64,000 nucleotides of DNA from Candidatus Latescibacterota bacterium (GTDB lineage Bacteria; Latescibacterota; UBA2968; UBA8231), in assembly GCA_965203355.1 (NCBI GenBank), contig OZ241889.1, positions 3,936,001 through 4,000,000 on the forward strand, in the 5' to 3' direction. Under the pieces are notes generated by a model. The model did no database searches and was not told the DNA's origin. It was given only the letters and a program-made list of their open reading frames with translations. How positions within the stretch are numbered: the stretch's first letter is position 1; every line of letters starts with the position of its first letter. Made by a program: the position numbers and the translations under genes. Below are positions 13,445 through 29,755 of this stretch, in pieces.

Positions 13445-15391
13445 TTAACTATTGGCAGGATCATCCACGCACAGAACTTCCAAAACGCCGTCGATGCGCT
13501 CGATTCGGTCCATGATCTGGCGCAGTTGCTGGTTGTCAACGACGTCGATCCAGAAGTTCATTACGGCGATGTGATCCTCGATGCGGGTAGTGGAGTCGCG
13601 GATGTTGAAGCCAGTTTCGCCGATCATCGTCGCGATGTCCCCCAGCAAGTTCTTGCGGTCCCAACTACGGATGCTTAACTGCACAGGAAAGGTCGGTTTG
13701 GGCTGGTCTATTCGGCTGATAACCTTGCCGATTGACAGGTGCCCTTTGCCGAGGGCCACGTAGAGCTGCTCGGTGCCCCTGAGCCCGAACTTCTGAGCCA
13801 CGGCATTGAGGTCGGGTAGGTCGGCGGTCCGTAGTCCTCTGTGGAGCACCTTCTTGCCCGAGCGGACGATGTCGTCGTATTCCTTCTTCCGTAGCCAGTG
13901 GCGGATGGCTTCAAGGGCCTTATCGGTCTTGGCTTGGTCCAGCCAAGAGAGTTGGGGGGTTTGCTGGGGGTCAGTAACGATGTCCACGGCTTCGCCGCTG
14001 TTCAAAGTCGCACCTAACGGTGTATCTCGACCGTTTACTTTGGCCTTCACACAGTGTATCCCGATGTCGGTGTGGACGGCAAAGGCTAAGTCGAGCGGCG
14101 TGGAGCCCTTGGGCAACTCGTATATGTAGCCTTTAGGAGTGATGACTAATATCTGGTCGAGAGACGCGATCCTGGTACTCACATTTTCCAAGAATTCGGG
14201 CAGGTCCTTAGCGTCGGCGGCTTGGCGTATCCAACTCGCGTGTTGGTCGAAATCGCTGGACCCCGCGTCGTTGGATTTGTAGCGCCAGTGGGCAGCAATG
14301 CCGATTTCAGCCGTTTGGTGCATCTCCTTGGTGCGGATTTGTACTTCGACATATTGGCCTTGAGGGCCAACCACCGACGTGTGTAGCGACTGGTAGCCGT
14401 TGCCCTTGGGTGTCAGTATATAGTTTTTGGTGTTAATAGCTTTGTAAATGTCGTGGATCGAATTGAGGATGGCATAGCATTGGTTCCTTGTGCCGGTGAT
14501 GATGCGTATGGCCAGCAGGTCGTAGATTTCTTCAAAGGGCTTACCGCGCTTCTTCATCTTATTGTAAATGCTATAGAAGTTCTTAGGACGGCTCGTAAAT
14601 TCGGCTTTAATGCCCTCTTCGTTCAGGTGCTTCTCGATTGGCACTTTGAACTTTTCTAGATAGGCTTCGCGCTCTTCGAGCGTCATGGCCACCTTGTCGC
14701 GCAACTCTTGGTAAATTTTGGGTTCGAGAAATTTGAGGCTTTGGTCTTCGAGTTGCCAGCGGAGCAGCGCCATCCCAAAGAGGTTAGCCAGCGGTGCGTA
14801 CAGGTCGAGCGTTTCCCGTGCCTTGCGCTCGCGGGATTGGGGGGGTAAGTGTTGGAGCGTACGCATGTTATGTAGGCGGTCGGCTAGCTTGATGGGAATG
14901 ACGCGGCCGTCCTTGGCCGCGGAGAGTAGCATCTTGACATAAGTCTCAAGTTGGCTCACCTGGGGGTTTTTGTCGGTTATCTGATCGATTTTGGTGACCC
15001 CGGCGATCAGTTCGGCGATCTCTTCGCCAAATTGTTTGGCAACCTCCTCATGCGTAGCCGGCGTATCCTCAACGACATCGTGCAACAGTCCGGCTGCAAC
15101 TGTAGTATCATCCAAGCCCAGTTGGACGAGCAGCCGAGCCACTTCGACGCAATGGATGAGGAACGGGGCGCCGGACTTGCGGGTTTGGCCTTTGTGATGC
15201 TCTTTGGCGAAGTAATAGGCGCGTTTGATCAGGGTGAACGGTTCGGAACCGGCTTTGGAGTTGGAGGAGTAGAACTCAATTAGCAGATCGGCCAGCGGCT
15301 CTTCGTTGCCTGCCAGCTCGACAATACAGTCCAACACGCCCCCCGAGGAGGTTTCAGATAAAGCCGAAAGATGTGTAGGAGTTTCAGTCAT
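13445..15391 (-). CDS. rel: RelA/SpoT homologue (HD-SYNTH-TGS-ACT, shortened)
   Basis: LLHDVVED, KLADRLHNMRT, NGYQSLHT, EVQIRT, AAHWRYK, TGS (DLAFAVHTDIG) and a C-terminal ACT domain. Confidence 0.93.
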   Translation of the reverse strand: MTETPTHLSALSETSSGGVLDCIVELAGNEEPLADLLIEFYSSNSKAGSEPFTLIKRAYYFAKEHHKGQTRKSGAPFLIHCVEVARLLVQLGLDDTTVAAGLLHDVVEDTPATHEEVAKQFGEEIAELIAGVTKIDQITDKNPQVSQLETYVKMLLSAAKDGRVIPIKLADRLHNMRTLQHLPPQSRERKARETLDLYAPLANLFGMALLRWQLEDQSLKFLEPKIYQELRDKVAMTLEEREAYLEKFKVPIEKHLNEEGIKAEFTSRPKNFYSIYNKMKKRGKPFEEIYDLLAIRIITGTRNQCYAILNSIHDIYKAINTKNYILTPKGNGYQSLHTSVVGPQGQYVEVQIRTKEMHQTAEIGIAAHWRYKSNDAGSSDFDQHASWIRQAADAKDLPEFLENVSTRIASLDQILVITPKGYIYELPKGSTPLDLAFAVHTDIGIHCVKAKVNGRDTPLGATLNSGEAVDIVTDPQQTPQLSWLDQAKTDKALEAIRHWLRKKEYDDIVRSGKKVLHRGLRTADLPDLNAVAQKFGLRGTEQLYVALGKGHLSIGKVISRIDQPKPTFPVQLSIRSWDRKNLLGDIATMIGETGFNIRDSTTRIEDHIAVMNFWIDVVDNQQLRQIMDRIERIDGVLEVLCVDDPANS

Positions 15392-15515: not shown

Positions 15516-15902
15516 ATGTGGCTAAATACCGAAAATGCACCCGTGCTGACGCAAGCGGATAAAATTCTCGCGCTCGTCGTGGGCTTGAGTGCGATCGGGC
15601 TGATACTCTACGGCCGCTATACCGCCGAGGCTGGTGGCGTACTAAGCGTCGAGTTGGCTGGAGCCGCGCCCGCCACGCATGTCCTCTCAGATTACGGGGT
15701 CTTGCCCGTTGTAGGACCTTTGGGCGTGAGCCAGATCGAGATCGGCCCCAAAGGGGTGCGCGTACTTTCCGCACCTTGCGTCCACAAGCTCTGCATGCGG
15801 CGGGGCTGGATGCAGCGGGCCGGCGACGTGGCCGCGTGCGTACCTAATGGCCTAGTATTGAGGATCGCTGGGGCCGCGCCCATAGACGCGATGATTCACT
15901 GA
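15516..15902 (+). CDS. NusG domain II (Lin0431/DUF1312-like) membrane-anchored protein
   Basis: N-terminal TM helix, GPLG..IEI...VRV..APCVHKLCMRRGW...ACVPN. Confidence 0.82.
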   Translation: MWLNTENAPVLTQADKILALVVGLSAIGLILYGRYTAEAGGVLSVELAGAAPATHVLSDYGVLPVVGPLGVSQIEIGPKGVRVLSAPCVHKLCMRRGWMQRAGDVAACVPNGLVLRIAGAAPIDAMIH

Positions 15903-16426
15903 TGTTTGCCCGCCCTAGAGACGTGGCTCGTTTGGGGCTTATGGCCAGTGCGGCAATTGTGCTCTTCGCCTTTGAATCGCTGGTACCCAAACCCTTGCCT
16001 TGGATGAAGCTGGGACTCGGCAACTTGCCGGTTTTGGTCGCGTTAGTGAGCTTTGGTGGCGGTCCAGCATTGGCCGTTAGTGCCATCAAGCTGGTAGTTG
16101 GCGGCTTGCTCAGCGGGGGATTTGCCGGTCCAGCCTTTGTCATTGGCGGCGGGGCTGGCTTGGCGAGTTGGTTGGTCATGGTTGCGGTGCGCCGCATGGG
16201 AGCAGGGCTTTTCAGCGTCGTGGGTCTGAGCATCTGGGGAGCGCTGGCGCACCAACTCAGCCAGCTCGTTCTCGCCGCTGGCTACATCGGCCACAGCGGT
16301 CTGTTCGCGCTTTTGCCGCTGGCCTTGTTCAGTGCCCTAATAAGCGGCGGGACGATCGGCCTGCTGGCTTGGTGGACCTTGGAGCAACTGGAGAAAATAG
16401 GCTGGTTGGACCAAGGCCAGTTATAA
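15902..16426 (+). CDS. Gx transporter family (heptaprenyl-PP synthase component I-like) membrane protein
   Basis: FESLVPKPLPWMKLGLGN and SVVGLSIWGALAHQLSQL motifs; coupled to the NusG-II gene. Confidence 0.85.
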   Translation: MFARPRDVARLGLMASAAIVLFAFESLVPKPLPWMKLGLGNLPVLVALVSFGGGPALAVSAIKLVVGGLLSGGFAGPAFVIGGGAGLASWLVMVAVRRMGAGLFSVVGLSIWGALAHQLSQLVLAAGYIGHSGLFALLPLALFSALISGGTIGLLAWWTLEQLEKIGWLDQGQL

Positions 16427-16455: not shown

Positions 16456-18411
16456 ATGGACCTGCCCAAAAAGCCTACCTTGCAAACCGAACCGGTCTTC
16501 AGCACCAAAGCACTGGTCGCGGGCACCCTAGGGTCGCTGTGCATCGCCGTGGGAGCACCCTACGGCAACATGGTCATCCGCGGCTCCTACATGTCGATTG
16601 ATTTCAGCGCCGCGGGTGCCCTTTTCCTCTTCTTCTTGTTGACGGGCTTATTCAACGCCTTGTTGACGCGCTTTGCCGCTTCTGTGGCCCTCGGACGCTG
16701 CGAACTAATCGTCGCGTACATCATGATGCTCACGGCTTCGGCCATCCCGACGATGGGCCTCAGCGAATACTGGCTGACGATCATCACCGGTGCCCAGTAC
16801 TATGCCACCCCGGAAAACGAATGGGCCTTGCTCATCCTGCCGCACCTTCCCACGTGGATCGCACCGCAGGATCCCGAGGCGATCAAGTGGTTTTACGAAG
16901 GAGCACCTCGCACCACTGGGGTACCTTGGGCCGCTTGGAGCGGCCCGCTGTGCTATTGGACCATTCTGATCGTAGCCCTGTACTTGGTGATGATCTCGTC
17001 CATGGTCATTATGCGCCGCCAGTGGGTGGAGCGAGAGCGGCTGGTTTATCCGCTGGTGCAAGTGCCCTTGGCCATGGTCGAAAGCGGAGGCCGCGGACAG
17101 GCCCTAGGTCCTTTCTTCAAAAATCCAATCATGTGGGTCGGCTTTGCCCTGCCCGTGTTCGTCAGTAGTCTCAACGCCCTACACTCGTATTTCAACTTCA
17201 TCCCCGCCATCCAACTCGTCTCCTCGGTTCCGATCCTGCGCAACACCGTCAGCCTGATCTTCCGCCTGAGCTTTCCCATGATCGGGTTCGCCTATCTGAT
17301 CAACCTCGACATCGCCTTCAGCCTGTGGTTCTTCAACACCATCGCCAAGTTGATCCGAGGAGGGCTGGGAGTTTTAGGGATTGGCAGCACTGAAAAACTC
17401 GTTTACGGCGCTCCCAGCGAGCCAATTCTCGCCCACCAAGGGCAGGGCGCGATGATCGTCTTAGTGCTTTTCGGCCTGTGGGTCGGCCGCGAGCATCTGC
17501 GCGACGTACTGCGCAAAGCATTCCGAGGCGACGACCACATCGACGACAGCGGCGAGATGCTCTCCTATCGGACGGCGGTCTTAGCTTGGCTCTCCGGCGT
17601 CGCAGTCATGACCATCTGGCTGTGGCAGTCTGGCTTGCCGCTGTGGGCGGCCTTTTTGACCCTGATGTTGGCCATCCTTATCTTCGTCGGCTTGACCCGA
17701 GTGGTAGTGGAAGGAGGTGTGGCCGCGGCGGTCGGACCGATGATTTCTCCAACGGTCTTGGTTTCGGCCGTCGGAGTTTCGGCAATCGGCCCGACCGGCA
17801 TGGTCGGCCTCGCATATACCTTCGTGTGGGCGGCGGACATCCGCACCTTTGTCATGGCCTCCTGTGCGCACGGTCTCAAGTTGAGCGAGGGACTAGGCCC
17901 GCGGCTACGTCCGCTCTTTTGGTACATGCTGTTGGCCATTGTCGTTAGCATCGTCGGCTCGGTCGCAGCGATTTTGTACCTCGCCTACGAATACGGCGGC
18001 ATCAACCTCAACGCGTGGTTTTTTGGAGGTGGAACTCGTGCCCCTTTTGATTATATTACCACCAAGTTAAGCGCACCTACCGAGCCAAACATAGATGGTT
18101 GGATTCACACTTTTGTCGGCGGGGGCATCATGGCCCTGCTCATGTGGGCGCGCCAGCAGTTCTTGTGGTGGCCCCTGCATCCCATCGGCTATCCCATTGG
18201 TGCCGTATGGCTGATGGACCAGTTGTGGTTTAGCATTGCCATCGCTTGGCTCTTAAAGTTGTTGGCAATGAAATACGGTGGGCCCAGCCTTTTTCGCCGG
18301 GTACGTCCCTTTTTTCTAGGCTTGATCATAGGCCAGTTTTTCATCGCGGGACTCTGGTTGATTATCGACTTTTTTACGGGCATGACCGACAATGTGGTCT
18401 TCTGGATCTGA
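16456..18411 (+). CDS. DUF6785/DUF6784-type multi-pass membrane protein (OPT-like)
   Basis: 651 aa, many TM segments, RRQWVERERLVYPL, WWPLHPIGY and KYGG..LFRRVRPFFLGLIIG motifs. Confidence 0.75.
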   Translation: MDLPKKPTLQTEPVFSTKALVAGTLGSLCIAVGAPYGNMVIRGSYMSIDFSAAGALFLFFLLTGLFNALLTRFAASVALGRCELIVAYIMMLTASAIPTMGLSEYWLTIITGAQYYATPENEWALLILPHLPTWIAPQDPEAIKWFYEGAPRTTGVPWAAWSGPLCYWTILIVALYLVMISSMVIMRRQWVERERLVYPLVQVPLAMVESGGRGQALGPFFKNPIMWVGFALPVFVSSLNALHSYFNFIPAIQLVSSVPILRNTVSLIFRLSFPMIGFAYLINLDIAFSLWFFNTIAKLIRGGLGVLGIGSTEKLVYGAPSEPILAHQGQGAMIVLVLFGLWVGREHLRDVLRKAFRGDDHIDDSGEMLSYRTAVLAWLSGVAVMTIWLWQSGLPLWAAFLTLMLAILIFVGLTRVVVEGGVAAAVGPMISPTVLVSAVGVSAIGPTGMVGLAYTFVWAADIRTFVMASCAHGLKLSEGLGPRLRPLFWYMLLAIVVSIVGSVAAILYLAYEYGGINLNAWFFGGGTRAPFDYITTKLSAPTEPNIDGWIHTFVGGGIMALLMWARQQFLWWPLHPIGYPIGAVWLMDQLWFSIAIAWLLKLLAMKYGGPSLFRRVRPFFLGLIIGQFFIAGLWLIIDFFTGMTDNVVFWI

Positions 18412-18428
18412 GAAAGGCACCTACAATT

Positions 18429-21400
18429 ATGCCTAAGTTCGCGATACAGTGGATGGCCTTCGGCTGGATTTTAGTCGGCGCAGCACCGGCTTGGACCGAA
18501 GTCGATTTTGCTGAATTGGCGCACGCGGCCCCGGTCGAGCGCGTCCGGCAGACAATGGACACTTTTGCCGGCTTGGGGTCTAGAGTCGCCGGCTATCGAG
18601 GTGCCGACCAAGCAGCCCAGATCGTGCAGGAACGCTTCCGCGCCATCGGCCTCGCCGACGTTACAGTCCACGAATACGATGTCTCTATTCCGGTCGATAA
18701 GGGCGGATTTCTGCAAGTAGTTGGCAGCGACGAACAAGTGCCCATCCACGGCCTGTGGCCCAACCTCGTCAAAACCTCGACGCTGCCCGAAGGCGGGGTG
18801 ACCAAGCGCTTGATTGACGCGGGCGCGGGTGAGTACGCAGACATGGACGGCAAGCAAGTCGAGGGGGCCGTGGCCCTGATGGACTTCAACTCGGGCGACG
18901 CTTGGCTCAATGCTGCTTATCTCGGGGCGCAAGCTATCATCTTTATCGAGCCGGACTCCACTGTGTACTTGGAGGGCGAAAAGAAATTTCTCTCCATGCC
19001 GCTCGACCTGCCGAGGTTTTGGGTCAATCGCCAAGTCGGTCAGCGCTTGCGTCGCCAGTTGGCAACCGAGGGAGAGCAAACGCTCCATCTACAGTACCGC
19101 ATGGATTGGGAGCGGCGTCCTGCTTGGAATATCCTCGGCACGATCCCCGGATACGATCCTTTGCTAAAAGAAGACGTGATCGTGCTAGAGGCGTACTACG
19201 ACGCCATGTCCGTTGTTCCGGCCCTTGCCCCAGGGGCCGAGCAAGCCTCCGGCATTACTGCGCTGTTGGAACTGGCGCGCTATTTCCGCGAAAATCCACC
19301 GGCGCGCACGGTCGTATTCCTCGCCACCTCGGCCCACCACCTAGGCTTGCGCGGGGTTGATGACTTCATCCAGCGCTATTTGCGCAAAGAGGACCCGTTC
19401 ATCGAGCACATGCTAGTGAGGCGGGTCGTCGATGCTGCTCTCGCGCGGAACATGATCGCCCAAGACGGCATCCACTACGCCATCGGCGAGGAGCAGTTCA
19501 CCGGTAAGGAAGCCCTGGTGCGGGGCGTTGCCGAAGGGCGCACCGACTTGGCCGAGCGCGTTGCCGACGCGGCCTTCGCCGAAGGCCTACTGAGCCAAGA
19601 AGGAGGCGCACTACACCTCGCCGACGAGCAATTCAAAGATCACCGCGCGCTAGTGGACGAACTGCGCTCGGACGACGACTTGCGACTCGAGCTCTTCAAA
19701 ACTTGGGTCGATCCCAAAGTCGATTCGCTCGCGGTCAAGCTCTTTATCAGCCTCGACCTTTCGTCGCAGACCGACGAACTCGGAGTGTGGAATAGCAATA
19801 CCAGCTTTTACTACAAGCGATACTTCGCGCCCTTCGGCAAGAACTTCATGGCCTATGCGCGCAAGATCAGCCGCGCGTTGGATTACCAGCGACGCGATGT
19901 ACTGGTCAATGGCATTAGTCCCGAAGGCGGGATGAGCTGGCAGACCTTTGTACCGGGTGAAATATCGGTCAACAGCGAATTGGTGTTGGCGACCGGTACG
20001 CCGGCATTGGCTTTTGTCACGGTCAACGACGCGCGCTTTCTCGTCGATACGCCCTTAGACCGGGCCGAGCACGTCAACTACGCCAATCTCGCCAAACAGA
20101 TCCGGGTGCTCGCTGGCATGTTCGAGATGGCCTTTGAAGACCCAGAGCTTTTCCCGGACTTCAAGATGCGCTTGCGCGACACGCTGCGCTCGCTGCGCGG
20201 CCGGACCATGGTTTTTCCGCGCCGCAGCATCATCCCCGACCTGCCGCGTACAGACGCCGTAGCCGTGGTGCGCAACGGCAAGAAAAAGTCGTATAAAGGC
20301 GTGCGCGGCGAGTACTACGAAGTCGTCGATGACAAAGGAGCCTTCTACGTAAATCGGGTGCGGGTCAACAACGTGCAGATCGAGGGCTACTACATGGACC
20401 CGATCACCGGCCGCATCACCTACGCCCCCGACCGCGGCGTGCAAGGCGACGAAAGCTACCCCATGCGGGTCGCCATGGACTGGCGCGACAAGCAATGGAT
20501 GGTCATCCTCTTCCCCTGCGTGCCCTACAATTTCTTCGACATCGTCGATCCGCGCTATTTGACCAAGCTGTCCAACGTGCAGGTCTTCGACGAGACCAAC
20601 AGCGCACCCGTGGAGTACGGTTATACCATCGGCGAAGGCCCCTCGGCCCAAAACGAGCCGGTCGGGGTGCTCTTTGCGCGGCCCGGTTCGCACATCAAGA
20701 TGGGGTTCGGGGCTGGCCTGCTGGGATTCCGCTCGCTCCTGCTCAACGCCACCAGCGTAACCGACAAGGAAAAAGCCGAGGGCGAGGGTTTTGAGATTCG
20801 CCCCGGCACTTCCTTTGCCCGCACGACCTTTCAAGCCGCCCAAGACATGTGGAATCTCAACGAGTCGCGCATGCGCGAGTTGCGGAGCTTTGCCATTGAA
20901 AACCAGCGCCTCAACGACCTCCACTACCGAGCCGAAGCCGAGTTAGCCCAAGCCGCCGAGGCCGAGGCCGAGCAGCGCTGGGGCGATTTCGTGCGCCACA
21001 CGCGCGCGGCCTTCGGGCTGGAGTCGCGTGCCTACCCAGACGTCAAATCCACTCAAAACGACGTCGTTCAGGGCATTATCTTCTTCATGGCCCTTGTCAT
21101 TCCCTGCGCCTTTTTCACCGAGCGGCTCATTTTTACGGCCGCCACGATCCGCAATCAAATCATCGGCTTTTCCGGGGTTTTCCTAGCGATCTGGATCGTG
21201 TTGTGGCTGGTGCATCCGGCCTTTCAACTATCCAATCCCTTCGTCATCCTGCTTGCTTTCATCATCATCGCCTTGGCCCTGCTGGTGATGTCGATCATCT
21301 CCGGCCGTTTCAACGAACAGATGAAGAAGCTGCGCACCGAGGTAGCCGTGATCCACGACACGGACGTCAGCCGCTCTTCGGCCTCGCTGACGGCCTTCCA

Positions 21401-23180
21401 GCTTGGGATTTCCAACATGAAGCGGCGCAAGACGCGCACGATGCTCACCTTTACCACGCTCTTGCTGCTGACGTTTACGGTGCTCTCTTTCACCTCCATC
21501 CGCACGGGCTTGCGGTTCAACCAAATCAGCCGCGACAACGAGGGTCTCTACGAGGGCATCCTCATCCGCAGTAAGGCGTGGAATCCCATGGAGGATTCGG
21601 TCCTCGAATACGCCCGCAGCAATTTCGGCGATCGCGCCGCAATCGCGCCGCGCAGTTGGTACAGCAACAAAGCCAAAGCACACATCAAAATAAAGCACGG
21701 GGAAAAGGCCCATAACGCGCTCGGCGTCCTAGGTTTAGCGCCCGAGGAAACTCAGGTCACTCGGCTCAACCAAGCCCTAGTTGCCGGGCGCTGGTTTGAA
21801 CCGGGCGAAGACAAGGTCTGCATCCTGCCCATCGACATGGTTAAAGAAGCTCATCTCGATGTCGATTTGGCCGACATTGGCCAAGCGCAAGTAAGGGTCT
21901 TCGGCAACTTGTTCACGGTGGTCGGCGTCATCGACTCTAAGCGCATGAAGGACCTCAAAGACCTCGACGACGAGATCCTAACACCGGCCGACTTCGCCGT
22001 CACCGGTGGCCAAGCGGTGCAGGAAATAGCCGAGGAAGAACAGCGCGAAAAGCAAGGGCTGGAGGACGCTAAGGTCGTCGTCAAGCCCTTCGTCCACATA
22101 GAGCCAGCCAACACCCTGATTATTCCCTACCATACGCTGCGCAACATCGGCAGTGGTAATCCCTTGCAGTCGGTAGCCGTGCGCTTCCCGGAAAGCAGTG
22201 ATGTACGCGGCGAGGTTGAGGAGTTCCTCTCGCGCCTCGCCGTGACGCTGTTCGCCGGCGTCAAGGAGGCTGGCGACGAATACATCAAGGTGTCGATCTA
22301 CTCGTCGCTGGGCATGACCTCCTTTTCCGGGATGAGCAACTTGTTCATCCCCATGCTGATTGCCTCGCTTATCGTACTCAACACCATGATGGGCAGCGTG
22401 TACGAGCGCTTCCGCGAGATCGGTATTTACTCTTCGGTCGGCCTAGCCCCGGGCCATATCTCTTGGCTCTTTATCGCCGAGAGTTGCGTCTATTCGGTGC
22501 TGGGCGTAGTCGCCGGTTATCTCAGCGGCCAAGTAATCGCCAAAGTGCTCATCGAATCGGACCTTTTGGGCGGCTTCACGCTCAACTACTCCTCGGTCGC
22601 CGCGGTGCTTTCCTGTATGCTGGTGATGGCCGTGGTCATGCTCTCGACGATTTATCCAGCGCGCAAGGCTTCGCAGATGGCCGTGCCAGACGTGACCCGC
22701 AAGTGGAAATTGCCAACGCCCGACGGCGACCAGTGGGATTTCGAGTTCCCCTTTACAGTCAGCGGCCACGAGGTCTTGGGCTTGAGCGTGTTCCTCATCG
22801 GCTACTTCGACTCCTACAGCGAAGAGTCCATCGGCACCTTCTATACCGACGGTGCCCAGCTAAGCCGCGAAGGAACGCCCAACGGCGAAGGATACATTAT
22901 CGACATGAATATCTGGCTGGCCCCTTTCGACTTGGGCGTCAGCCAACACGTCACCGTGCGGGCCATGCCAGAGGCCGAGCACAATATTTACGCGGTCAGC
23001 CTACAAATCAAGCGACTCAGCGGCGAGGACGCCTCGTGGCGGCGGGTCAACCAGCGCTTCATGAACGTCATCCGCAAACAGTTCCTCATCTGGCGCACGG
23101 TGGATACCGAGGCCAAGGAAGGCTATCGCCAACAGGGCGCGGAAATTCTGCAAGGGCTGCGCAGCGAAGTGTCGGCGTAA
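18429..23180 (+). CDS. Giant fusion: PA/M28-like ectodomain + TM bundle + MacB-type periplasmic core + FtsX permease + C-terminal domain
   Basis: Signal peptide; SRVAGYRG and NILGTIPG; EAYYD..APGAEQASG..LLELAR; SNMKRRKTRTMLT; GSVYERFREIGIYSSVGLAP..FIAES; IYPARKAS. Confidence 0.85.
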   Translation: MPKFAIQWMAFGWILVGAAPAWTEVDFAELAHAAPVERVRQTMDTFAGLGSRVAGYRGADQAAQIVQERFRAIGLADVTVHEYDVSIPVDKGGFLQVVGSDEQVPIHGLWPNLVKTSTLPEGGVTKRLIDAGAGEYADMDGKQVEGAVALMDFNSGDAWLNAAYLGAQAIIFIEPDSTVYLEGEKKFLSMPLDLPRFWVNRQVGQRLRRQLATEGEQTLHLQYRMDWERRPAWNILGTIPGYDPLLKEDVIVLEAYYDAMSVVPALAPGAEQASGITALLELARYFRENPPARTVVFLATSAHHLGLRGVDDFIQRYLRKEDPFIEHMLVRRVVDAALARNMIAQDGIHYAIGEEQFTGKEALVRGVAEGRTDLAERVADAAFAEGLLSQEGGALHLADEQFKDHRALVDELRSDDDLRLELFKTWVDPKVDSLAVKLFISLDLSSQTDELGVWNSNTSFYYKRYFAPFGKNFMAYARKISRALDYQRRDVLVNGISPEGGMSWQTFVPGEISVNSELVLATGTPALAFVTVNDARFLVDTPLDRAEHVNYANLAKQIRVLAGMFEMAFEDPELFPDFKMRLRDTLRSLRGRTMVFPRRSIIPDLPRTDAVAVVRNGKKKSYKGVRGEYYEVVDDKGAFYVNRVRVNNVQIEGYYMDPITGRITYAPDRGVQGDESYPMRVAMDWRDKQWMVILFPCVPYNFFDIVDPRYLTKLSNVQVFDETNSAPVEYGYTIGEGPSAQNEPVGVLFARPGSHIKMGFGAGLLGFRSLLLNATSVTDKEKAEGEGFEIRPGTSFARTTFQAAQDMWNLNESRMRELRSFAIENQRLNDLHYRAEAELAQAAEAEAEQRWGDFVRHTRAAFGLESRAYPDVKSTQNDVVQGIIFFMALVIPCAFFTERLIFTAATIRNQIIGFSGVFLAIWIVLWLVHPAFQLSNPFVILLAFIIIALALLVMSIISGRFNEQMKKLRTEVAVIHDTDVSRSSASLTAFQLGISNMKRRKTRTMLTFTTLLLLTFTVLSFTSIRTGLRFNQISRDNEGLYEGILIRSKAWNPMEDSVLEYARSNFGDRAAIAPRSWYSNKAKAHIKIKHGEKAHNALGVLGLAPEETQVTRLNQALVAGRWFEPGEDKVCILPIDMVKEAHLDVDLADIGQAQVRVFGNLFTVVGVIDSKRMKDLKDLDDEILTPADFAVTGGQAVQEIAEEEQREKQGLEDAKVVVKPFVHIEPANTLIIPYHTLRNIGSGNPLQSVAVRFPESSDVRGEVEEFLSRLAVTLFAGVKEAGDEYIKVSIYSSLGMTSFSGMSNLFIPMLIASLIVLNTMMGSVYERFREIGIYSSVGLAPGHISWLFIAESCVYSVLGVVAGYLSGQVIAKVLIESDLLGGFTLNYSSVAAVLSCMLVMAVVMLSTIYPARKASQMAVPDVTRKWKLPTPDGDQWDFEFPFTVSGHEVLGLSVFLIGYFDSYSEESIGTFYTDGAQLSREGTPNGEGYIIDMNIWLAPFDLGVSQHVTVRAMPEAEHNIYAVSLQIKRLSGEDASWRRVNQRFMNVIRKQFLIWRTVDTEAKEGYRQQGAEILQGLRSEVSA

Positions 23181-23193
23181 GGGAGGATAGCGA

Positions 23194-25617
23194 GTGCTCG
23201 GAAGGAAAAATAGAAACCCGAACCAAGAGATAGAAGAATATCGGGATCTAATGCAGGTCCCGGACCGCTTCGAGAACGGCTTTACGATCAAGGCTATACT
23301 CGGTGTGTTCTTCGTCGCCTTCATCATGGTGCCGGGCAACATGTACTTAAGCCTGATGATCGGCGGCTCTTTGGGGGCCGCGGCCGAGTGGGTGACCATC
23401 ATCCTCTTCGCCGAAATCACCAAGCGCTCCTTCTCCTCCCTCCGGCGCCAAGAAGTCTATGTGTTGTTCTACGTGGCTTCCTCGCTGATCGCCGCGGAGA
23501 CCGGCGCCTTTGAGGGCTTGCTCTACAACCAGTACTTGGTGCAATCGCCGGCGGCCAAGCAGTTCGGCATAACCAATCTGATCCCCACTTGGGTGGCGCC
23601 GCCGGCCGACTCCCTCGCCATCATCGAGCGCACCTTCCTGCACTCGGATTGGGCGATGCCGATCGTCCTCCTAGTCTTGGGGATGATCATCTCGCGCATC
23701 AACTGGTTCACGATGTCGTACGCGCTCTTCCGGCTTAGTTCCGACTACGAGCGCCTGCCCTTTCCCTTCGCGCCCGTAAACGCCCAAGGAGCTACGGCAC
23801 TGGCCGAGACCACCCAAGGGGTTGAGACGTGGCGCTGGCGCGTATTTTCGGCCGGGGCGATGATCGGCTTGGTCTTTGGCACGATCTACGTGGCCCTGCC
23901 GGCGATTACGGGCGCACTGCTGACCGAGCCGATCCAACTCATACCCATTCCCTTTATCGATTTCACGCAAGTTACCGGCAACTTCATCCCGGCCACTCCG
24001 CTGGGATTTTCTGCACACTTGGGGCCGGTGTTCACCGGGCTAGTGGTCCCATTCTGGGGCGTGGTCGGCACCTTTATCGGCGTGGTCGTCGCCTCAATCG
24101 CCAATCCGCTGCTCTATACTTGGACGCCGCCGTGGCGCGAGGACGAGGGGCCTTACCTGAACTTGTGGCAGCAAGGCATGGGCACGGTCGAGACCTTTTT
24201 CGTCAACAACGTCGATTTCTGGATGAGTTTCGGCATCGGCACCACCATCGCCATCGCCGTCATCGGCATCTATCAGGTGTTTCAGAGCGTGCGCAGTGCT
24301 AGGGCCAACGCCGGGAATGAAGGCGAGCCCAAGCGCAGTTTCGCCACGCCAGTGGGCCGGGGCGATTTCCCCATCTGGCTGGCGCTGGCCCTATACGCCT
24401 TGGCCACGGCTGGCCTGATAGGCATCGCCGCTTGGCTGCTGCCGGGCATTGCCCAATTTATATGGTTTTTCCTCTTTTTTGGTTTTGTATTTACGCCCTT
24501 TCAATCCTTTGTCAACGCCCGCCTAGTCGGGATGGTGGGGCAGACGGTGGACATCCCCTTCGTGCGCGAGGCCACGATTATCTTCTCTGGGTATCGCGGC
24601 GTTGACATCTGGTTCATTCCGTTTCCCTTGGGCAACTACGGTGCCCAAACCATGAAGTTCCGCGAAATCGAACTGACCGGCACCCAGTTTACTAGCATCA
24701 TCCGCGCCGAGATTTTCATGGTGCCCATCGTGCTCTTTACCAGTTTTCTCTACGGCTCCTATATCTGGAAACTGGCACCGATCCCCTCGGCCTCCTATCC
24801 CTATGCCCAGCTAATCTGGCGGCTGCGCGCCTACCAGCAATGCCTCTTTATCACCGGCACCATGCGCAGCGAACTAGCCATAGACAATGATCGGGCGGGA
24901 TGGACCCCGGCTAACCTGATTGAAAACGAGTGGTGGTACTGGCGGGTGCGGCTAGTGGATCAGGAGTGGCTGGATTCCAACGGCAAGCGCGGCCAAGTCG
25001 GTCGGTGGATGCCGACCCAAGTTTTCTACTCGTACTTCGAGCAAGGGGCGCCCGACATCGTCGCCGAGCGCTATCTGCGCGACGACCCGCTATCTGAGGA
25101 AGTTGTCGAGGGGCTACCGGCCATTGCGCCACTAAGGCCGACTATGGACGCCGTCATCCGCACCCCCCGCCCGACGCTCGAAGTGCAGGTTGAGCGGGCC
25201 GTGCCAGCGGGATGGTCCTTCTACTTTGAAGTGGATACCGATCCGCTCTTTACCAGCTCTTGGATCCAGCGTTCCACCGATGAGCCTTGGCTCTTTAAGG
25301 CCCTGAAAGAAGAGGTCATCGCCTTTGGTGCTGTCTTTGGGCTGGTGAGTTTCATTCTGCTGTCCATTCTCGGGCTGCCGATCCTGCTGATCTTTGGCTT
25401 CGTGCGCTCGCTGACGACCTTGCCGCATTTCGTGGTGACTGAGATCGTCGGTGCGCTCTTGGCCCGCTACTACTTTTGGAACAAGTACGGGCGGCAGGAA
25501 TGGCGGCAGTTTGCCCCCATTCTGGCCGTGGGCTTTTCCTGCGGCATGGCATTGATGGGGATGGCGTCGGTGGGGATCGCCCTGATCCAGAAATCGGTCT
25601 CCGTGTTGATCTTTTAG
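23194..25617 (+). CDS. OPT-superfamily-like multi-pass membrane protein with an extracytoplasmic insertion
   Basis: 807 aa, many TM segments, ERLPFPFAPV motif, IPSASYPYAQLIW; GTG start with GGGAGG RBS. Confidence 0.72.
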   Translation: MLGRKNRNPNQEIEEYRDLMQVPDRFENGFTIKAILGVFFVAFIMVPGNMYLSLMIGGSLGAAAEWVTIILFAEITKRSFSSLRRQEVYVLFYVASSLIAAETGAFEGLLYNQYLVQSPAAKQFGITNLIPTWVAPPADSLAIIERTFLHSDWAMPIVLLVLGMIISRINWFTMSYALFRLSSDYERLPFPFAPVNAQGATALAETTQGVETWRWRVFSAGAMIGLVFGTIYVALPAITGALLTEPIQLIPIPFIDFTQVTGNFIPATPLGFSAHLGPVFTGLVVPFWGVVGTFIGVVVASIANPLLYTWTPPWREDEGPYLNLWQQGMGTVETFFVNNVDFWMSFGIGTTIAIAVIGIYQVFQSVRSARANAGNEGEPKRSFATPVGRGDFPIWLALALYALATAGLIGIAAWLLPGIAQFIWFFLFFGFVFTPFQSFVNARLVGMVGQTVDIPFVREATIIFSGYRGVDIWFIPFPLGNYGAQTMKFREIELTGTQFTSIIRAEIFMVPIVLFTSFLYGSYIWKLAPIPSASYPYAQLIWRLRAYQQCLFITGTMRSELAIDNDRAGWTPANLIENEWWYWRVRLVDQEWLDSNGKRGQVGRWMPTQVFYSYFEQGAPDIVAERYLRDDPLSEEVVEGLPAIAPLRPTMDAVIRTPRPTLEVQVERAVPAGWSFYFEVDTDPLFTSSWIQRSTDEPWLFKALKEEVIAFGAVFGLVSFILLSILGLPILLIFGFVRSLTTLPHFVVTEIVGALLARYYFWNKYGRQEWRQFAPILAVGFSCGMALMGMASVGIALIQKSVSVLIF

Positions 25618-25618
25618 C

Positions 25619-26611
25619 ATGAGCGGCTCGGTGGATTTCGCTTGGCAAGGGTTGCGGCTGTCCGTGCCCGACGATTGGAACCTCGGCCGAGTTGACGGGG
25701 ATTTTGAAAAGGGCTATGCCCGCCTCGACGACGCCGAAATCGTCCGCGCCGAGATCGAATGGCGGCGGCTCAAAGGCCGCGGCGAAGCCCTGCGTCTGAC
25801 CGAGTTGGTAGATCGCTATCTGGCCAACTTGCGAAAGAAGGCCCAAAAGGTCGATGCTCCCTTTGAGGTTCAACGCCGCGCCCGATTCCTCAAAAACAAG
25901 AAGTTCCTCGCCGGCCGCGAATACGAGGTCTTCACTTGGGAGGCCGACTTCCGCGCGTACAACCTAGCACTCGCCTTAGAGTCCGGGCGCGTAGTGCTCC
26001 TGAGAGTGCTGGCCAAGTTAGACGAGTTTTTGCCCGAGCAAGCCGAGGCCGTGTTCAGCTCGCTCGTCGATCAAGAAGGCGAGGCCGCGCATCTGTGGAG
26101 CGTGTATGGCTTGCGGTTCTTCGCGCCCAACGACCTCAAGCTACAAAGCCACTCCCTCAAGTCGGGCCACATCGAGCTAGCGTTTTCCCTCGGCAAACAA
26201 GTTCTAAAGGTACATCGTTTGAGTATGGCCCGGATCATGCTCAAAGACGCGCACATTCAAGACTGGTATCCAGTTTTTTTTAAGAAGCAATTGCGCGATT
26301 TCGTGGTGGATATTACTCCAGAAGCCGTGCGGGAACACGAGGGCATTCGCATCGAGGGGCGGCCGCGCAGCCGCTGGCGTCAACTACTGCGACCCCTGCC
26401 CTTTATGAACCCGAGGCCGCGCCTGTACATGCGGGGGCGCGTCTGGCGCGATACCAGCATCGACAAAATCGCCATCGTCGAGCACCTCTATCGCAAAAAA
26501 AACGCAGCAGACGATCTAGTCGCCAAGGTAGTAGATGGGCATTTTATCGAAAAACAAGGGACCCAAGCTGAGTCGGGCCGCCATGCTGGCGTCGCGGCCA
26601 ACGCGCAATGA
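25619..26611 (+). CDS. Conserved hypothetical soluble protein with an internal two-fold repeat
   Basis: 330-aa ORF starting 1 nt after the upstream stop; repeats FAWQGLRLSVPDDW and WSVYGLRFFAPNDL. Confidence 0.7.
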   Translation: MSGSVDFAWQGLRLSVPDDWNLGRVDGDFEKGYARLDDAEIVRAEIEWRRLKGRGEALRLTELVDRYLANLRKKAQKVDAPFEVQRRARFLKNKKFLAGREYEVFTWEADFRAYNLALALESGRVVLLRVLAKLDEFLPEQAEAVFSSLVDQEGEAAHLWSVYGLRFFAPNDLKLQSHSLKSGHIELAFSLGKQVLKVHRLSMARIMLKDAHIQDWYPVFFKKQLRDFVVDITPEAVREHEGIRIEGRPRSRWRQLLRPLPFMNPRPRLYMRGRVWRDTSIDKIAIVEHLYRKKNAADDLVAKVVDGHFIEKQGTQAESGRHAGVAANAQ

Positions 26612-26966
26612 GTCCCTGCACTGGGAAAACAACGACAACGGCGAGGTCCAGGTCTCAATAAAGCGCCAAGATACCTATAAGGTGCGGTTGTTGTCCAAGT
26701 TTTTCTACATTCCCAAGCAGCGCAAAATCACCCTCGACGAGGTCGGCAGCGAGGTCTGGCGGATGTGCAATGGCCGCAACTCGGTCGGCAGGATGATCGA
26801 GGAACTCAGCGACAAGTACCAACTCAATCGCAAGGAGGCCGAGGTCTCCCTGCTCCAGTATTTGAAGACCCTTGGGCAGAAGCGCTTTATCGGTTTTGTG
26901 TTAGAAAGCGACGAGAGGCCACCCGGTCGCGGCGCGGCCAGCGGAAAAAAATGGCAAAAAAAATAA
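26535..26966 (+). CDS. PqqD-family (RiPP recognition element-like) protein
   Basis: ITLDEVGSEVWRMCNGRNSVGRMIEELSDKYQL..EAEVSLLQYLKTLGQKRFI winged-helix RRE pattern. Confidence 0.85.
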   Translation: MGILSKNKGPKLSRAAMLASRPTRNESLHWENNDNGEVQVSIKRQDTYKVRLLSKFFYIPKQRKITLDEVGSEVWRMCNGRNSVGRMIEELSDKYQLNRKEAEVSLLQYLKTLGQKRFIGFVLESDERPPGRGAASGKKWQKK

Positions 26967-27571
26967 ACAAAGGAGAGCAATTAGCTCGTCCCTTGTTTCT
27001 TCTGCACCCGCACCAAATCGCACGCTTTTTCTCCCATTTACTCAATCCCGCGCTGTTGGCACTCTTAGTCTTCGGCGTCCAAGCGCACGTGTTGGGCGAC
27101 TGGCTCGCCGGCTCGGTGGCGATCGGCATCTTCTCCTTGGTTCCCGGACTGTTACTCTGGTATTTGGTGCGCTCGGGCTATCTCGACAAAGCCTATACAG
27201 ACGACCGCAAAAAACGCGCTACTCTGCTCTTGCTGGGCGTCCTGTGCTATGCCTTGGGGAGTGCGGCCCTCTACGGGATCGGAGCCCCGCGCCTGATGCT
27301 GGTCACGGCCGCGTCCTGTGCCGTCAACGCGCTCTTGGTTTGGTGGATCAATCGCTCCTATAAGATCAGTATTCACGCGGCTGGTGTCGGCGGGGCAACC
27401 TGTGTATTGTTGATCAGCGTCGGCAGCGCGGCGTGGCCCTTCTTGTTCAGTTGGCCGACCGTCGCTTGGGCGCGGCTTTACTTGCGGGCACATACTCCCA
27501 TGCAGATCGGCGCGGGCGGTGCGCTGAGCGCGGGGAGTATGGCCCTGCTGTACCGTGTTTTCATCTGGTGA
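26951..27571 (+). CDS. PAP2-like membrane protein
   Basis: Hydrophobic, with KISIHAAG and WARLYLRAHTPMQIGAG motifs. Confidence 0.7.
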   Translation: MAKKINKGEQLARPLFLLHPHQIARFFSHLLNPALLALLVFGVQAHVLGDWLAGSVAIGIFSLVPGLLLWYLVRSGYLDKAYTDDRKKRATLLLLGVLCYALGSAALYGIGAPRLMLVTAASCAVNALLVWWINRSYKISIHAAGVGGATCVLLISVGSAAWPFLFSWPTVAWARLYLRAHTPMQIGAGGALSAGSMALLYRVFIW

Positions 27572-27580
27572 GTGCAGCAC

Positions 27581-29755
27581 ATGAACCAATCGTATAAGGG
27601 CTTTATAGATCGCCTGACCTACCACAACCCGGAAAACGGCTATACCATCGCGCGCTTAGTAATAGAGGGCCAGCGCGAGCGTATCGCCATTGTGGGGACG
27701 CTTGCCTCCATCCAAGAGGGCGAGAGCGTCGAAGTCGAAGGCGTGTGGACCAATCATCCCAAATACGGCAAACAGCTCAAGGTAGAGCACTATAAAGCCG
27801 TTTATCCCTCGACCCTTGAAGGTATGCAAAAGTACCTCGGGTCCGGTTTGATCAAAGGCATCGGGCCGCGGTCGGCCAAGCGCATTGTCGACCACTTTGG
27901 CGCGGAAACGATCGACATCATCGACGCGGATCCTCACCGGCTAGAGGAAGTCCCCAAGCTGGGCAAGAAGAAAGTCGAACTGATCGCCGAGGCCTGGGAT
28001 GAGCAGCGGCAAATCAAGGATGTGATGGTCTTTTTGCAATCGCACGGGATTACCACCGGCTACGCAGTGAAAATTTTCAAGACCTACGGCCAAGAGGCCA
28101 TCCAGAAGGTGCGCAGCGATCCCTATCGCCTAGAGCGCGATGTGGATGGGATCGGCTTCCGCATCGCCGACCGCATTGCCCAGCGCTTGGGCCTGGGCCA
28201 CGACGCACCCGAGCGCGTACAGGCCGGTATTCGCTACCTGCTCTCCGAAGCGACCGACGAAGGCCATGTGTACCTGCCGGCTGTCGAAATGATGGAACGG
28301 GCCGTCGAAATTTTGGCGATCGACGCCGAATCGCTGCCGCCAGCATTGGAGGCCCTGCGCGCCTCCGACGGCGTGGTCACCGAAGACTTGCGCTACTATC
28401 TGCCGCCACTCCACCGCGCCGAAGTGGGCACCGCATCGTCGCTAAAGCGGCTTCTACAAGCACCGGCCGAAGAATTGGCTGTGCCCGCAGAAGCAGAAGA
28501 CGAGCTGGAATTGGCTCCGGCGCAAAGACAGGCCGTGGAACTAGTGGCCACCAGCAAGGTACTGGTGCTGACCGGCGGTCCGGGTACGGGCAAGACCACG
28601 GTCACTCGGCGCATCTTGCGCCTGTTGGAGGAAGGTGGCCTCAAGGTCGCGCTGTGCTCGCCTACGGGCCGCGCCGCCAAGCGGCTGAGCGAGGCCAGCG
28701 GGCGCGGGGCCAAGACCATTCATCGGCTGCTCGGATTTCAGCCGGGCGAGCGGCAATTCAAAAAGGGCTACGACGACCGCCTCGAAATCGACGCGCTGAT
28801 CGTCGATGAGGCTTCCATGATCGACGTGGTACTGATGAACGCGCTCCTGCGCGCCCTACCCGATCACGCTCGGCTGGTGCTAGTCGGCGACATTGACCAA
28901 CTGCCCTCGGTGGGGCCGGGCAACATGCTCCGCGACATCATCGACTCTGCTGAAGTGCCGGTGGTGCGTCTGACGCAGATTTTTCGCCAAGCGCAAAGAA
29001 GCCACATCATCCGCAACGCGCACCGCATCAACAGCGGCGAAATGCCTATCGTCGAGAACCAAGCGGACGCGGATTTCTACTTCATCCAAGCAGGTGACCC
29101 AGAGCGGGTGGTCGAGTTGGTGGAGGAGTTGTGCGCCACGCGGCTACCCAGCTATCGGCGATGGGACCGGCGCAACGACATCCAAGTGCTTGCGCCCATG
29201 TACCGCGGCGAAACTGGCGCACTCAACCTCAACCAGCGGCTGCAACAGCGCCTCAACCCGCACGGCCAAGCACATGGCCATCGCGGGGCTGAGTTCCGGG
29301 TGGGCGACAAGGTCATGCAGGTCAAAAACAACTACGACAAGGGCGTTTTTAACGGCGACATCGGCGCGATCGAGCGGCTCGACGCAGAAAAGCAGCTACT
29401 CTACGTGCGCTTTGACCACACTTTGGAATACGATCAAGTCGATCTCGACCAGCTAACCCTCGCCTACGCCATCAGCATCCACCGCTCTCAAGGCTCGGAA
29501 TTCCCCGTGGTGGTGCTGCCGCTGACGACGCAGCACTACGTGATGCTTCAGCGCAACCTGCTCTACACGGCGATTACCCGCGCCAAGCAAATGGTCGTCA
29601 TCGTCGGTACCCTCAAGGCCCTCAAGCTGGCCATTGCCAACGATAAGGTCGCCCAGCGCTATACCACGCTCAAGGAGCGGCTGCGCGGCGAGGTCGGTAC
29701 GGTGATGGAAGCGGGGCAAGCCATCCCATTGGAATCAACACTGCCGAGCGATTGA
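27581..29755 (+). CDS. recD2: ATP-dependent RecD2 helicase
   Basis: YLGSGLIKGIG, GGPGTGKT, SPTGRAAKR, DEASMID, GDIDQLPSVGPG, AYAISIHRSQGSEF and LYTAITRAK. Confidence 0.96.
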   Translation: MNQSYKGFIDRLTYHNPENGYTIARLVIEGQRERIAIVGTLASIQEGESVEVEGVWTNHPKYGKQLKVEHYKAVYPSTLEGMQKYLGSGLIKGIGPRSAKRIVDHFGAETIDIIDADPHRLEEVPKLGKKKVELIAEAWDEQRQIKDVMVFLQSHGITTGYAVKIFKTYGQEAIQKVRSDPYRLERDVDGIGFRIADRIAQRLGLGHDAPERVQAGIRYLLSEATDEGHVYLPAVEMMERAVEILAIDAESLPPALEALRASDGVVTEDLRYYLPPLHRAEVGTASSLKRLLQAPAEELAVPAEAEDELELAPAQRQAVELVATSKVLVLTGGPGTGKTTVTRRILRLLEEGGLKVALCSPTGRAAKRLSEASGRGAKTIHRLLGFQPGERQFKKGYDDRLEIDALIVDEASMIDVVLMNALLRALPDHARLVLVGDIDQLPSVGPGNMLRDIIDSAEVPVVRLTQIFRQAQRSHIIRNAHRINSGEMPIVENQADADFYFIQAGDPERVVELVEELCATRLPSYRRWDRRNDIQVLAPMYRGETGALNLNQRLQQRLNPHGQAHGHRGAEFRVGDKVMQVKNNYDKGVFNGDIGAIERLDAEKQLLYVRFDHTLEYDQVDLDQLTLAYAISIHRSQGSEFPVVVLPLTTQHYVMLQRNLLYTAITRAKQMVVIVGTLKALKLAIANDKVAQRYTTLKERLRGEVGTVMEAGQAIPLESTLPSD

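Follow-up and report, generated by a model that had tools for sequence, protein, structure and literature searches.

A non-canonical M28-like head on a MacB/FtsX-type permease of Latescibacterota, and its association with OPT-fold membrane proteins

The 64,000-nucleotide stretch of DNA analysed here (the window; positions 3,936,001 to 4,000,000 of contig OZ241889.1 in assembly GCA_965203355.1, from a Candidatus Latescibacterota bacterium) carries a gene for a 1583-amino acid protein (Table 1) that begins like an aminopeptidase of family M28 and ends like the permease of an ATP-binding cassette (ABC) transporter. What would a peptidase-like head be doing on such a permease, if its active site no longer has the residues of a peptidase? 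An initial annotation, made from the sequence alone, had read the five ligand motifs of this head as AYYD, GAEQ, SAHH, LDLS and VDTPLD, and had proposed either a re-wired metal site with exchanged ligands or a non-catalytic binding domain akin to those of nicalin and nicastrin, which might act as a substrate receptor. By sequence comparison, the head is an M28-like domain whose non-canonical site is common to its whole family, and it is carried on an ABC-type permease. We see about an even chance that it is the probably non-peptidase head of an ATP-driven envelope machine serving OPT-like permeases.

The M28-like head

Pfam recognises Peptidase_M28 at amino acids (aa) 234-319 of the protein (39.1 bits, cut-off 21.3), over positions 1-79 only of the 193 in the profile. 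A structure was predicted for aa 23-634 (predicted local distance difference test score, pLDDT, 88.9; predicted template modelling score, pTM, 0.89), which takes in the whole M28-like domain and just the first ~56 residues of the outer region that follows it (aa 579-878). In VIA the model superimposes on the Aeromonas aminopeptidase 1rtq with a Z score of 29.4 at 2.5 Å over 267 of 291 residues (model residues 1-551), and 389-401 residues are aligned with the PA-M28 enzymes 2ek8, PaAP and 3iib; Foldseek matches it to 2ek8 at 1.1e-21 and to BSAP at 5.9e-20. Pfam match and superposition together give the domain the alpha/beta fold of the M28 catalytic domain. Its best matches, by sequence profile as well as by predicted structure, are the PA-M28 aminopeptidases (that of Aneurinibacillus AM-1, 2ek8; BSAP/YwaD, 6hc6; Pseudomonas PaAP, 8ac7); with these and with the Aeromonas enzyme it has in common a catalytic fold into which a PA-like apical part is inserted. 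It differs from them at the five ligand positions and the catalytic Glu, in a lineage-specific insertion, in being fused to a seven-helix permease instead of secreted, and in a second half whose profile finds no significant match in the PDB and which lies beyond the reach of sequence methods because it has diverged too far.

An exact string search puts all five motifs within 19185-20062, where the initial annotation had seen them. For the first three motifs, the mapping of Y256, D258, E271 and H303-H304 is the same in HMMER alignments to B. subtilis YwaD/BSAP, the Aneurinibacillus enzyme and the Aeromonas aminopeptidase, and again in an hhalign comparison with two canonical PA-M28 proteins from the genome of a close relative (probability 99.1 over residues 16-302). 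D443 and D540 are placed by the logic of the motifs, by a weak hhalign match of VDTPLD to HHEPAD (probability 2%, E 0.023) and by the predicted model. In that model one strand finishes at Y256 and another, E414-421, at D443; a helix begins with E271, and D540 is part of the loop leading into the last long helix. All four thus appear to sit where ligands would be expected. Where the canonical ligands are His, Asp, Glu, Asp and His, the protein has Y256, E271, H304, D443 and D540, with another His, H303, in place of the general-base Glu beside the ligand Glu.

Conservation of the site

Substitutions were counted in two sets of relatives, 269 aligned to the family profile and 122 non-redundant. 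None of the 269 keeps the canonical H/D/EE/D/H set, so the substitutions are family-wide. Clusters at 50% identity whose representatives match the head number 3311 at E<=0.001 and 683 at the stricter E<=1e-30. At the position of the catalytic Glu, which aligns with the first of the two Glu residues in EE, 265 of 265 relatives have His. Alignments and family counts thus bear out the annotation both in its M28-like domain with non-canonical residues at the five ligand positions and in its loss of the catalytic Glu. Equally constant is D258 (Asp in 268 of 268), and nearly so are D544 and P542 (255 of 256 each), D443 (Asp in 239 of 244) and R536 (Arg in 250 of 255). Of the apical part, K186 never changes (267 of 267), R196 does so in a single relative (267 of 268), and P111 and N112 are conserved as well.

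The remaining positions are looser. Position 256 is Tyr in 234, Phe in 14 and His in 12 of the 269 relatives (98, 10 and 10 of the 122 non-redundant ones), and position 271 is Glu in 226, Asp in 22 and something else in 19 of 267; in the non-redundant set the latter divides into 87 Glu, 20 Asp and 15 non-acidic residues, with Thr, Gly or Gln in some lineages. Records labelled Omnitrophota and Ratteibacteria, for example, have motifs reading PGATS and SSHF, with Thr at 271. Position 540 is Asp in 102 and non-acidic in 20 of the 122. At position 304 the wider set has 133 His, 83 Phe and 16 Tyr, and the non-redundant set 71 Phe, 13 Tyr and 12 His; the double His is a feature of the close clade, since only those 12 non-redundant relatives have it. 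The conservation of Y, E, HH and D that the initial annotation wished to see examined therefore holds for D443 and the first His and only in part for Y256, E271 and H304. Its reciprocal swap of ligands into a re-wired metal site finds no conserved ligand set to rest on, positions 304, 256, 271 and 540 all varying among the 122. Such a pattern speaks for a conserved pocket more than for a conserved metal cluster, and would still be compatible with a metal in most members.

The variant head forms a separate lineage, as canonical M28 enzymes coexist with it in one genome: a relative whose head is 96% identical (G001) has five large open reading frame (ORF) copies of the variant head gene together with three canonical M28 proteins matching the full Pfam profile, two of which (L087, L088) have normal H/D/EE/D/H ligands. 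Weaker matches of ~600 aa in Armatimonadota were considered as intermediates and rejected, being canonical PA-M28-PDZ enzymes. A search for the head as a separate protein gave 53 matches, many of them labelled partial by the source; from these, taken as a set, no clear stand-alone form emerged.

The permease and its ATPase

From its N-terminus, the protein consists of the M28/PA-like head, a further outer region, three helices, a MacB/FtsX permease and a cytoplasmic tail. Seven helices are found by hydropathy scan, three within aa 879-957 and four of FtsX type at aa 1006-1024, 1299-1317, 1344-1362 and 1390-1408. Pfam detects MacB_PCD at aa 1004-1195 (31.3 bits, cut-off 27) and FtsX at aa 1306-1417 (57 bits, cut-off 25.5), and in the PDB the C-terminal half matches MacB (5lil, 2.4e-11) as well as YtrF, LolC and LolF. 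The FtsX four-helix domain is present with a periplasmic core domain between its first and second transmembrane helices (TM1 and TM2). With the N-terminal hydrophobic stretch taken as a signal or anchor, the helix count would place the first ~855 residues on the outer side of the cytoplasmic membrane and the final ~165 in the cytoplasm. Neither aa 579-878, searched against Pfam, nor the C-terminal domain, aa 1418-1583, matches a family. Within the three extra helices the polar residues E898, R899, H929 and N936 are invariant, which suggests a functional site or interface inside the membrane.

MacB, LolCDE and FtsEX, which perform mechanical work outside the membrane, are built in the same way, with the FtsX four-helix domain, the core domain between TM1 and TM2 and a separate ATPase of LolD/FtsE type. 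They lack the ~855-aa N-terminal outer region with its peptidase-like head, the three extra helices and the cytoplasmic tail, and are not known to have an obligate association with OPT-fold proteins. Of 80 related loci, 15 have an ATPase of LolD/MacB/FtsE type next to the head gene, and at 10 of the 15 there is a small FtsX-type protein (~250 aa) as well. G001 has the orthologous pair of small FtsX-type protein and ATPase (the ATPase 70% identical) ~340 kilobases from its head gene; there, at L081:757-2256, a 233-aa FtsX-type protein that has no large outer domain is followed by the LolD/MacB-type ATPase. The pair is unlinked to the head gene in the G001 lineage and lies next to it at loci of Armatimonadota type. 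This makes a heteromeric type VII ABC system likely, and in the window organism a corresponding ATPase partner may be supposed.

Linkage to DUF6785/DUF6784 proteins

Immediately upstream of the head gene lies a gene for a polytopic membrane protein of the Pfam families DUF6785 and DUF6784, and immediately downstream one for a polytopic protein of 807 aa. The two products are related by profile comparison only (hhalign of their alignments, probability 92.4, E 5.3e-7), BLASTP giving no match between them. Among 80 related loci, DUF6785 stands upstream in 43, the 807-aa type downstream in 59, either of them in 72 and both in 30. Entire genomes agree with this. Of 121 genomes sampled from the phylum to which a carrier labelled Armatimonadota belongs, 98 have both the M28-like core and DUF6785, and the other 23 have neither (lists compared by reading). 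In 150 genomes from the phylum of G001, the head is found in 137, DUF6784 in 136 and neither in 13, the sole genome with a head only being 0.8 megabases in size. Under other phylum labels (Omnitrophota, Poribacteria, Ratteibacteria, Planctomycetota) all five genomes with DUF6785 carry the head, in ORFs of 1298-2124 aa. DUF6785 was absent from all 14 well-known control genomes searched. Independent of synteny and co-occurrence is the evidence of natural fusions in which M28-like, FtsX, DUF6785 and DUF6784 regions form a single protein, one of them in G001 (L111:1149-7556, 2135 aa) and another being P0137 (2120 aa). Other long relatives add LysM, Big_5 or WCX.

The DUF6785/DUF6784 protein of the window (16456-18411) has the fold of an OPT-type transporter in its predicted model (pLDDT 89.8, pTM 0.91). 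Barley Yellow Stripe 1 (7wsr), a member of the OPT superfamily, whose symporters carry oligopeptides and metal chelates, is matched by Foldseek at 2.7e-8 and by VIA with a Z of 24.8 and a root-mean-square deviation of 3.8 Å over 550 of 600 residues; the next best VIA Z is 6.0. Pfam OPT does not match this protein even at E up to 10, only DUF6785 and DUF6784 being found, and sequence searches of the PDB with it, with the 807-aa protein and with the 330-aa protein encoded further downstream gave no match. Characterised OPT transporters are lone proton symporters, not known to have an ABC-type companion.

DUF6785 genes are far more numerous than head genes, with 49 matches in G001 against five head-gene copies; in Armatimonadota there are up to at least 12 scored matches per genome. 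In two Armatimonadota genomes (G248, G257), four or five of six other DUF6785 loci lie in cassettes with a LacI regulator, a pilin-like DUF1559/N_methyl protein, DUF6785/6784 and glycoside hydrolases (GH) (L101, L104, L105); the hydrolases include GH32 (twice) with a PfkB fructokinase-type kinase, GH66 with an alpha-amylase, GH42 and GH2. In G001 the neighbours of DUF6785 genes are a sulfatase, an FGE-sulfatase, a prolyl-oligopeptidase-family protein, a gamma-glutamyltranspeptidase and oxidoreductases. Judged by predicted fold and neighbours only, the DUF6785 proteins seem to form a series of uptake permeases, each with a substrate of its own. The idea that the head recognises the N-termini of the pilin-like DUF1559 proteins encoded beside Armatimonadota DUF6785 genes was dropped as a general explanation because DUF1559 has no match in G001, as against 62 in G151 and 58 in G257.

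Proposed function and alternatives

In the reading that we favour, the head would be the outer part of a type VII (MacB/LolC/FtsX-like) ABC permease and most likely no ordinary aminopeptidase, a PA-domain M28 fold that has given up the di-zinc site and keeps a conserved polar pocket in which a ligand or a partner might be bound or held. H303, D258, D443, D544 and R536 would contribute to this pocket, together with K186, R196 and W110-P111-N112 of the apical part. A separately encoded LolD/MacB-type ATPase and a small FtsX-type partner would complete the machine, ATP hydrolysis moving the periplasmic core domain and hence the head after the manner of MacB, LolCDE and FtsEX. Set beside catabolic genes and present in many copies, the DUF6785/DUF6784 permeases would be the clients, and the head probably acts for them as a module for capture, gating or hand-over.

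Several observations weigh against this reading. The window has no ATPase gene near the head gene, and the co-occurrence of head and DUF6785 in genomes can come from shared descent instead of function. No type VII ABC system is known to be an importer, and a role in uptake would therefore be without precedent. The remaining points concern the site itself. An invariant His at the position of the general base suits a re-tooled catalytic or metal site as well, and acids occur together at 271, 443 and 540 in 93 of the 122 non-redundant relatives. Also, the Aeromonas enzyme with the substitution E151H is reportedly 'functional', to go by the title of the paper by Bzymek et al., Biochemistry 2005; 44:12030.

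These last points are the strength of the explanation that comes next, in which the head is still a hydrolase, or another catalyst, working with a new site and trimming peptides or oligomers before their uptake by the OPT-like permeases; it might for instance hold one metal on E271, D443 and D540 and use H303 as general base. The same E151H variant is the best PDB match to the profile of the core of the domain (7.5e-10), and a partner with an oligopeptide-transporter-type fold would suit an enzyme that trims peptides. As a ligand set, however, the three acids are incomplete in 29 of the 122 relatives, which lack an acid at one or more of these positions, and members labelled Omnitrophota and Ratteibacteria have Thr in place of E271. 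Tyr at 256 exchanges with Phe, and 304 is mostly Phe. The acids that do not change are D258 and D544, whose equivalents are second-shell residues in canonical M28 enzymes. We regard such an enzyme as a tentative and somewhat unlikely alternative.

The constancy of D258 and D544 could also mean that they stabilise the fold, and this leads to a second alternative, an inert scaffold: a pseudoenzyme serving as a spacer or as a platform for assembly or oligomerisation, in which conservation of the old site would be structural. Inactive M28-like domains do rank high among the structural matches of the head (transferrin receptor, Z 26.3; a chain of the glycosylphosphatidylinositol (GPI) transamidase complex, Z 19.4). 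Folding alone hardly accounts for four invariant residues in two different subdomains (H303, R536, K186 and R196), and a mere scaffold seems improbable to us.

Relation to nicalin and nicastrin

The resemblance to nicalin and nicastrin that was first noticed is real in one place. A 61-aa piece of the head (window positions 19107-19289) matches nicalin only in the PDB (E 3.7e-4), and around the first two motifs nicalin has the same spacing and an equal loop length; its motifs read AHYD and GADS, however, so that it retains a His and an Asp that the head family has lost. For the whole domain the profile search ranks active enzymes first (YwaD 4e-18, 2ek8 6e-18, the Aeromonas enzyme ~1e-8), ahead of nicalin at 1.8e-7 and the transferrin receptor at ~3e-6. 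With the core profile, which the E151H variant leads, nicalin (2.3e-7) trails the wild-type Aeromonas enzyme and YwaD (1.8e-8 to 4e-8) by no more than a factor of about ten, and nicastrin is not significant (E 0.15-0.4). Pfam Nicastrin gives weak matches in 4 of 50 members, the best at E 0.011.

Structure comparison points the same way. Bacterial PA-M28 aminopeptidases come first, followed by the transferrin receptor, glutaminyl cyclases and glutamate carboxypeptidase II (GCPII), and then by the chain of the GPI transamidase complex, which is probably GPAA1; neither nicalin nor nicastrin is among the best 50 structural matches listed by Foldseek or by VIA (VIA rank 50 has Z 18.2). Transferrin receptor 1 and GCPII (Z 23.2) carry a PA and an M28-like domain on a membrane anchor, the former as a non-enzymatic binder and the latter as an active zinc enzyme; they differ from the head in being anchored by a single pass, in their helical dimerisation domain and in having no transporter attached.

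Nicalin (7tm3, 6w6l) and nicastrin (5a63) are likewise M28-like ectodomains on membrane complexes, with partners and anchors different from those of the head: a nicalin-type single-pass anchor is missing here, the head being fused to a permease with seven predicted helices, and the partners (TMEM147/NOMO, and the presenilin complex) are eukaryotic. What survives of the annotation's comparison is the one nicalin-like piece and the notion of a partner to a multipass-membrane machine, which the fusion to a MacB-type permease and the link to OPT-fold membrane proteins bear out; by profile and predicted fold the domain as a whole is closest to active bacterial PA-M28 aminopeptidases, and neither gives a sign of special kinship. 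The resemblance would then reflect shared M28 ancestry. That the head should be the prokaryotic counterpart of nicalin and nicastrin by descent, with the receptor-like ectodomains of eukaryotes derived from this bacterial family, we consider very improbable: it can draw on the 61-aa piece and the weak Nicastrin matches, and has against it that active aminopeptidases score as well or better both by profile and by fold. Finally, local decay of a dying aminopeptidase gene in one genome is refuted by the 683 clusters matching at E<1e-30 and by the recurrence of the same residues across phyla, with a canonical set in 0 of 269; an intact frame of 1583 aa and contigs from RNA libraries that cover relatives of the gene also speak against it.

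Distribution, transcription and significance

The whole stretch is found in four runs, and 0.58 of its sampled words in two runs labelled sponge metagenome. Four metatranscriptome libraries from three studies contain contigs that lie on the gene at 90-99% identity, one of them, of 9630 nucleotides, spanning 17404-25617; some bins of the gene stay bare in RNA contigs, which speaks neither for nor against. This lends weak support to transcription of the locus, the contigs stemming from relatives and not from the window strain, and DNA carry-over being possible. Near-identical copies of the gene occur in records labelled Gemmatimonadetes or Planctomycetota (L004, L010, L034 and others); at least L034 (G094) and L142 (G137) are within the sample of G001's phylum, and such labels may not reflect lineage.

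Source records call the protein no more than an 'M28 family peptidase' or an 'FtsX-like permease family protein', and a search of the full-text literature, supplements excluded, gave nothing on an M28-FtsX fusion, on DUF6785/DUF6784 or on the system. As a whole the proposed system may be new in kind. If the favoured reading is true, several mostly uncultured phyla, including sponge-associated Latescibacterota, share an envelope machine that has gone undescribed; per genome there are as many as ~48 paralogues of OPT type beside a few copies of the permease with the head. Three known parts would come together in a new combination, namely a mechanotransmitting ABC permease, OPT-fold transporters and a head derived from a peptidase. 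A role would be assigned to the Pfam families DUF6785 and DUF6784, and bacteria would supply one more case of an M28 fold put to use as an ectodomain other than a peptidase. How these organisms take up nutrients would become testable, with the invariant His as a clear target for mutation.

A bolder version, which we put forward as a doubtful extension, would have a MacB-type motor with a peptidase-derived head shared as a capture-and-gating module by dozens of OPT-fold permeases. Uptake assisted by ATP in this way would form a new class, found in almost all Latescibacterota and Armatimonadota and also in members labelled Omnitrophota, Poribacteria and Ratteibacteria. It would parallel in bacteria what eukaryotes have done repeatedly with inactive M28-like ectodomains (nicalin, nicastrin, transferrin receptor), which serve there as receptors of multipass membrane machines.

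Other features of the locus

The coordinates of the gene, of its parts and of its neighbours are collected in Table 1. A program-made list of ORFs starts the gene at TTG 18246, which overlaps the upstream gene (end 18411); ATG 18429, preceded by a purine-rich stretch, was taken as the start because the closest database relatives are also 1583 aa long.

Table 1. Head gene, its domains and motifs, and neighbouring genes (positions in the window)
Feature	Position	Strand	Basis or remark
Whole gene, 1583 aa	18429..23180	+	ORF and translation
N-terminal hydrophobic signal or anchor, aa 1-22	18429..18494	+	By eye from sequence
M28-like domain with inserted PA-like apical part, aa 23-578	18495..20162	+	Predicted model, Foldseek, VIA, hhalign
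AYYD, aa 255-258	19191..19202	+	Y256 at position of first ligand His; D258 is Asp of H-x-D
GAEQ, aa 269-272	19233..19244	+	E271 at position of bridging Asp
SAHH, aa 301-304	19329..19340	+	H303 at position of catalytic Glu, H304 at position of ligand Glu
Insertion, aa 320-435, mostly helical with short strands	19386..19733	+	Alignments; DSSP on model
LDLS, aa 442-445	19752..19763	+	D443 at putative position of fourth ligand (Asp)
VDTPLD, aa 539-544	20043..20060	+	D540 at putative position of last ligand His; R536 just upstream
Further conserved outer region, aa 579-878	20163..21062	+	Conserved columns in alignment of relatives
Three extra membrane helices, aa 879-957	21063..21299	+	Hydropathy scan
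MacB/FtsX-type permease (TM1, periplasmic core domain, TM2-4)	21438..22679	+	Pfam, PDB matches
Conserved cytoplasmic C-terminal domain, aa 1418-1583, and stop codon	22680..23180	+	Conserved among relatives
RelA/SpoT-type protein	13445..15391	-	Ordinary flank, syntenic in close relatives
Heptaprenyl diphosphate synthase component I family protein	15902..16426	+	Directly upstream of DUF6785 gene; syntenic in close relatives
DUF6785 + DUF6784 polytopic membrane protein, upstream partner	16456..18411	+	Pfam E 1.6e-124 and 1.1e-31
807-aa polytopic membrane protein, downstream partner	23194..25617	+	Distant DUF6785 relative by profile
330-aa soluble protein	25619..26611	+	Syntenic in close clade
Small membrane protein	26765..27571		Weak PAP2-like match; behind 330-aa gene
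RecD2 helicase	27572..29755	+	Ordinary flank, syntenic in close relatives
1544-aa protein with DUF4011, AAA_11/AAA_12 helicase, MTES_1575 nuclease-like and DUF3320 domains	30882..35516	-	Domain matches

The insertion at aa 320-435 is specific to the close clade and variable or absent in other relatives. Two Chthonomonadales-type members (L030, L032) have, past their equivalent of the SAHH motif, an insertion that looks hydrophobic and resembles a possible membrane hairpin; its equivalent in the window protein is mainly helical. The 330-aa soluble protein matches no family and is faintly detectable in some Armatimonadota loci.

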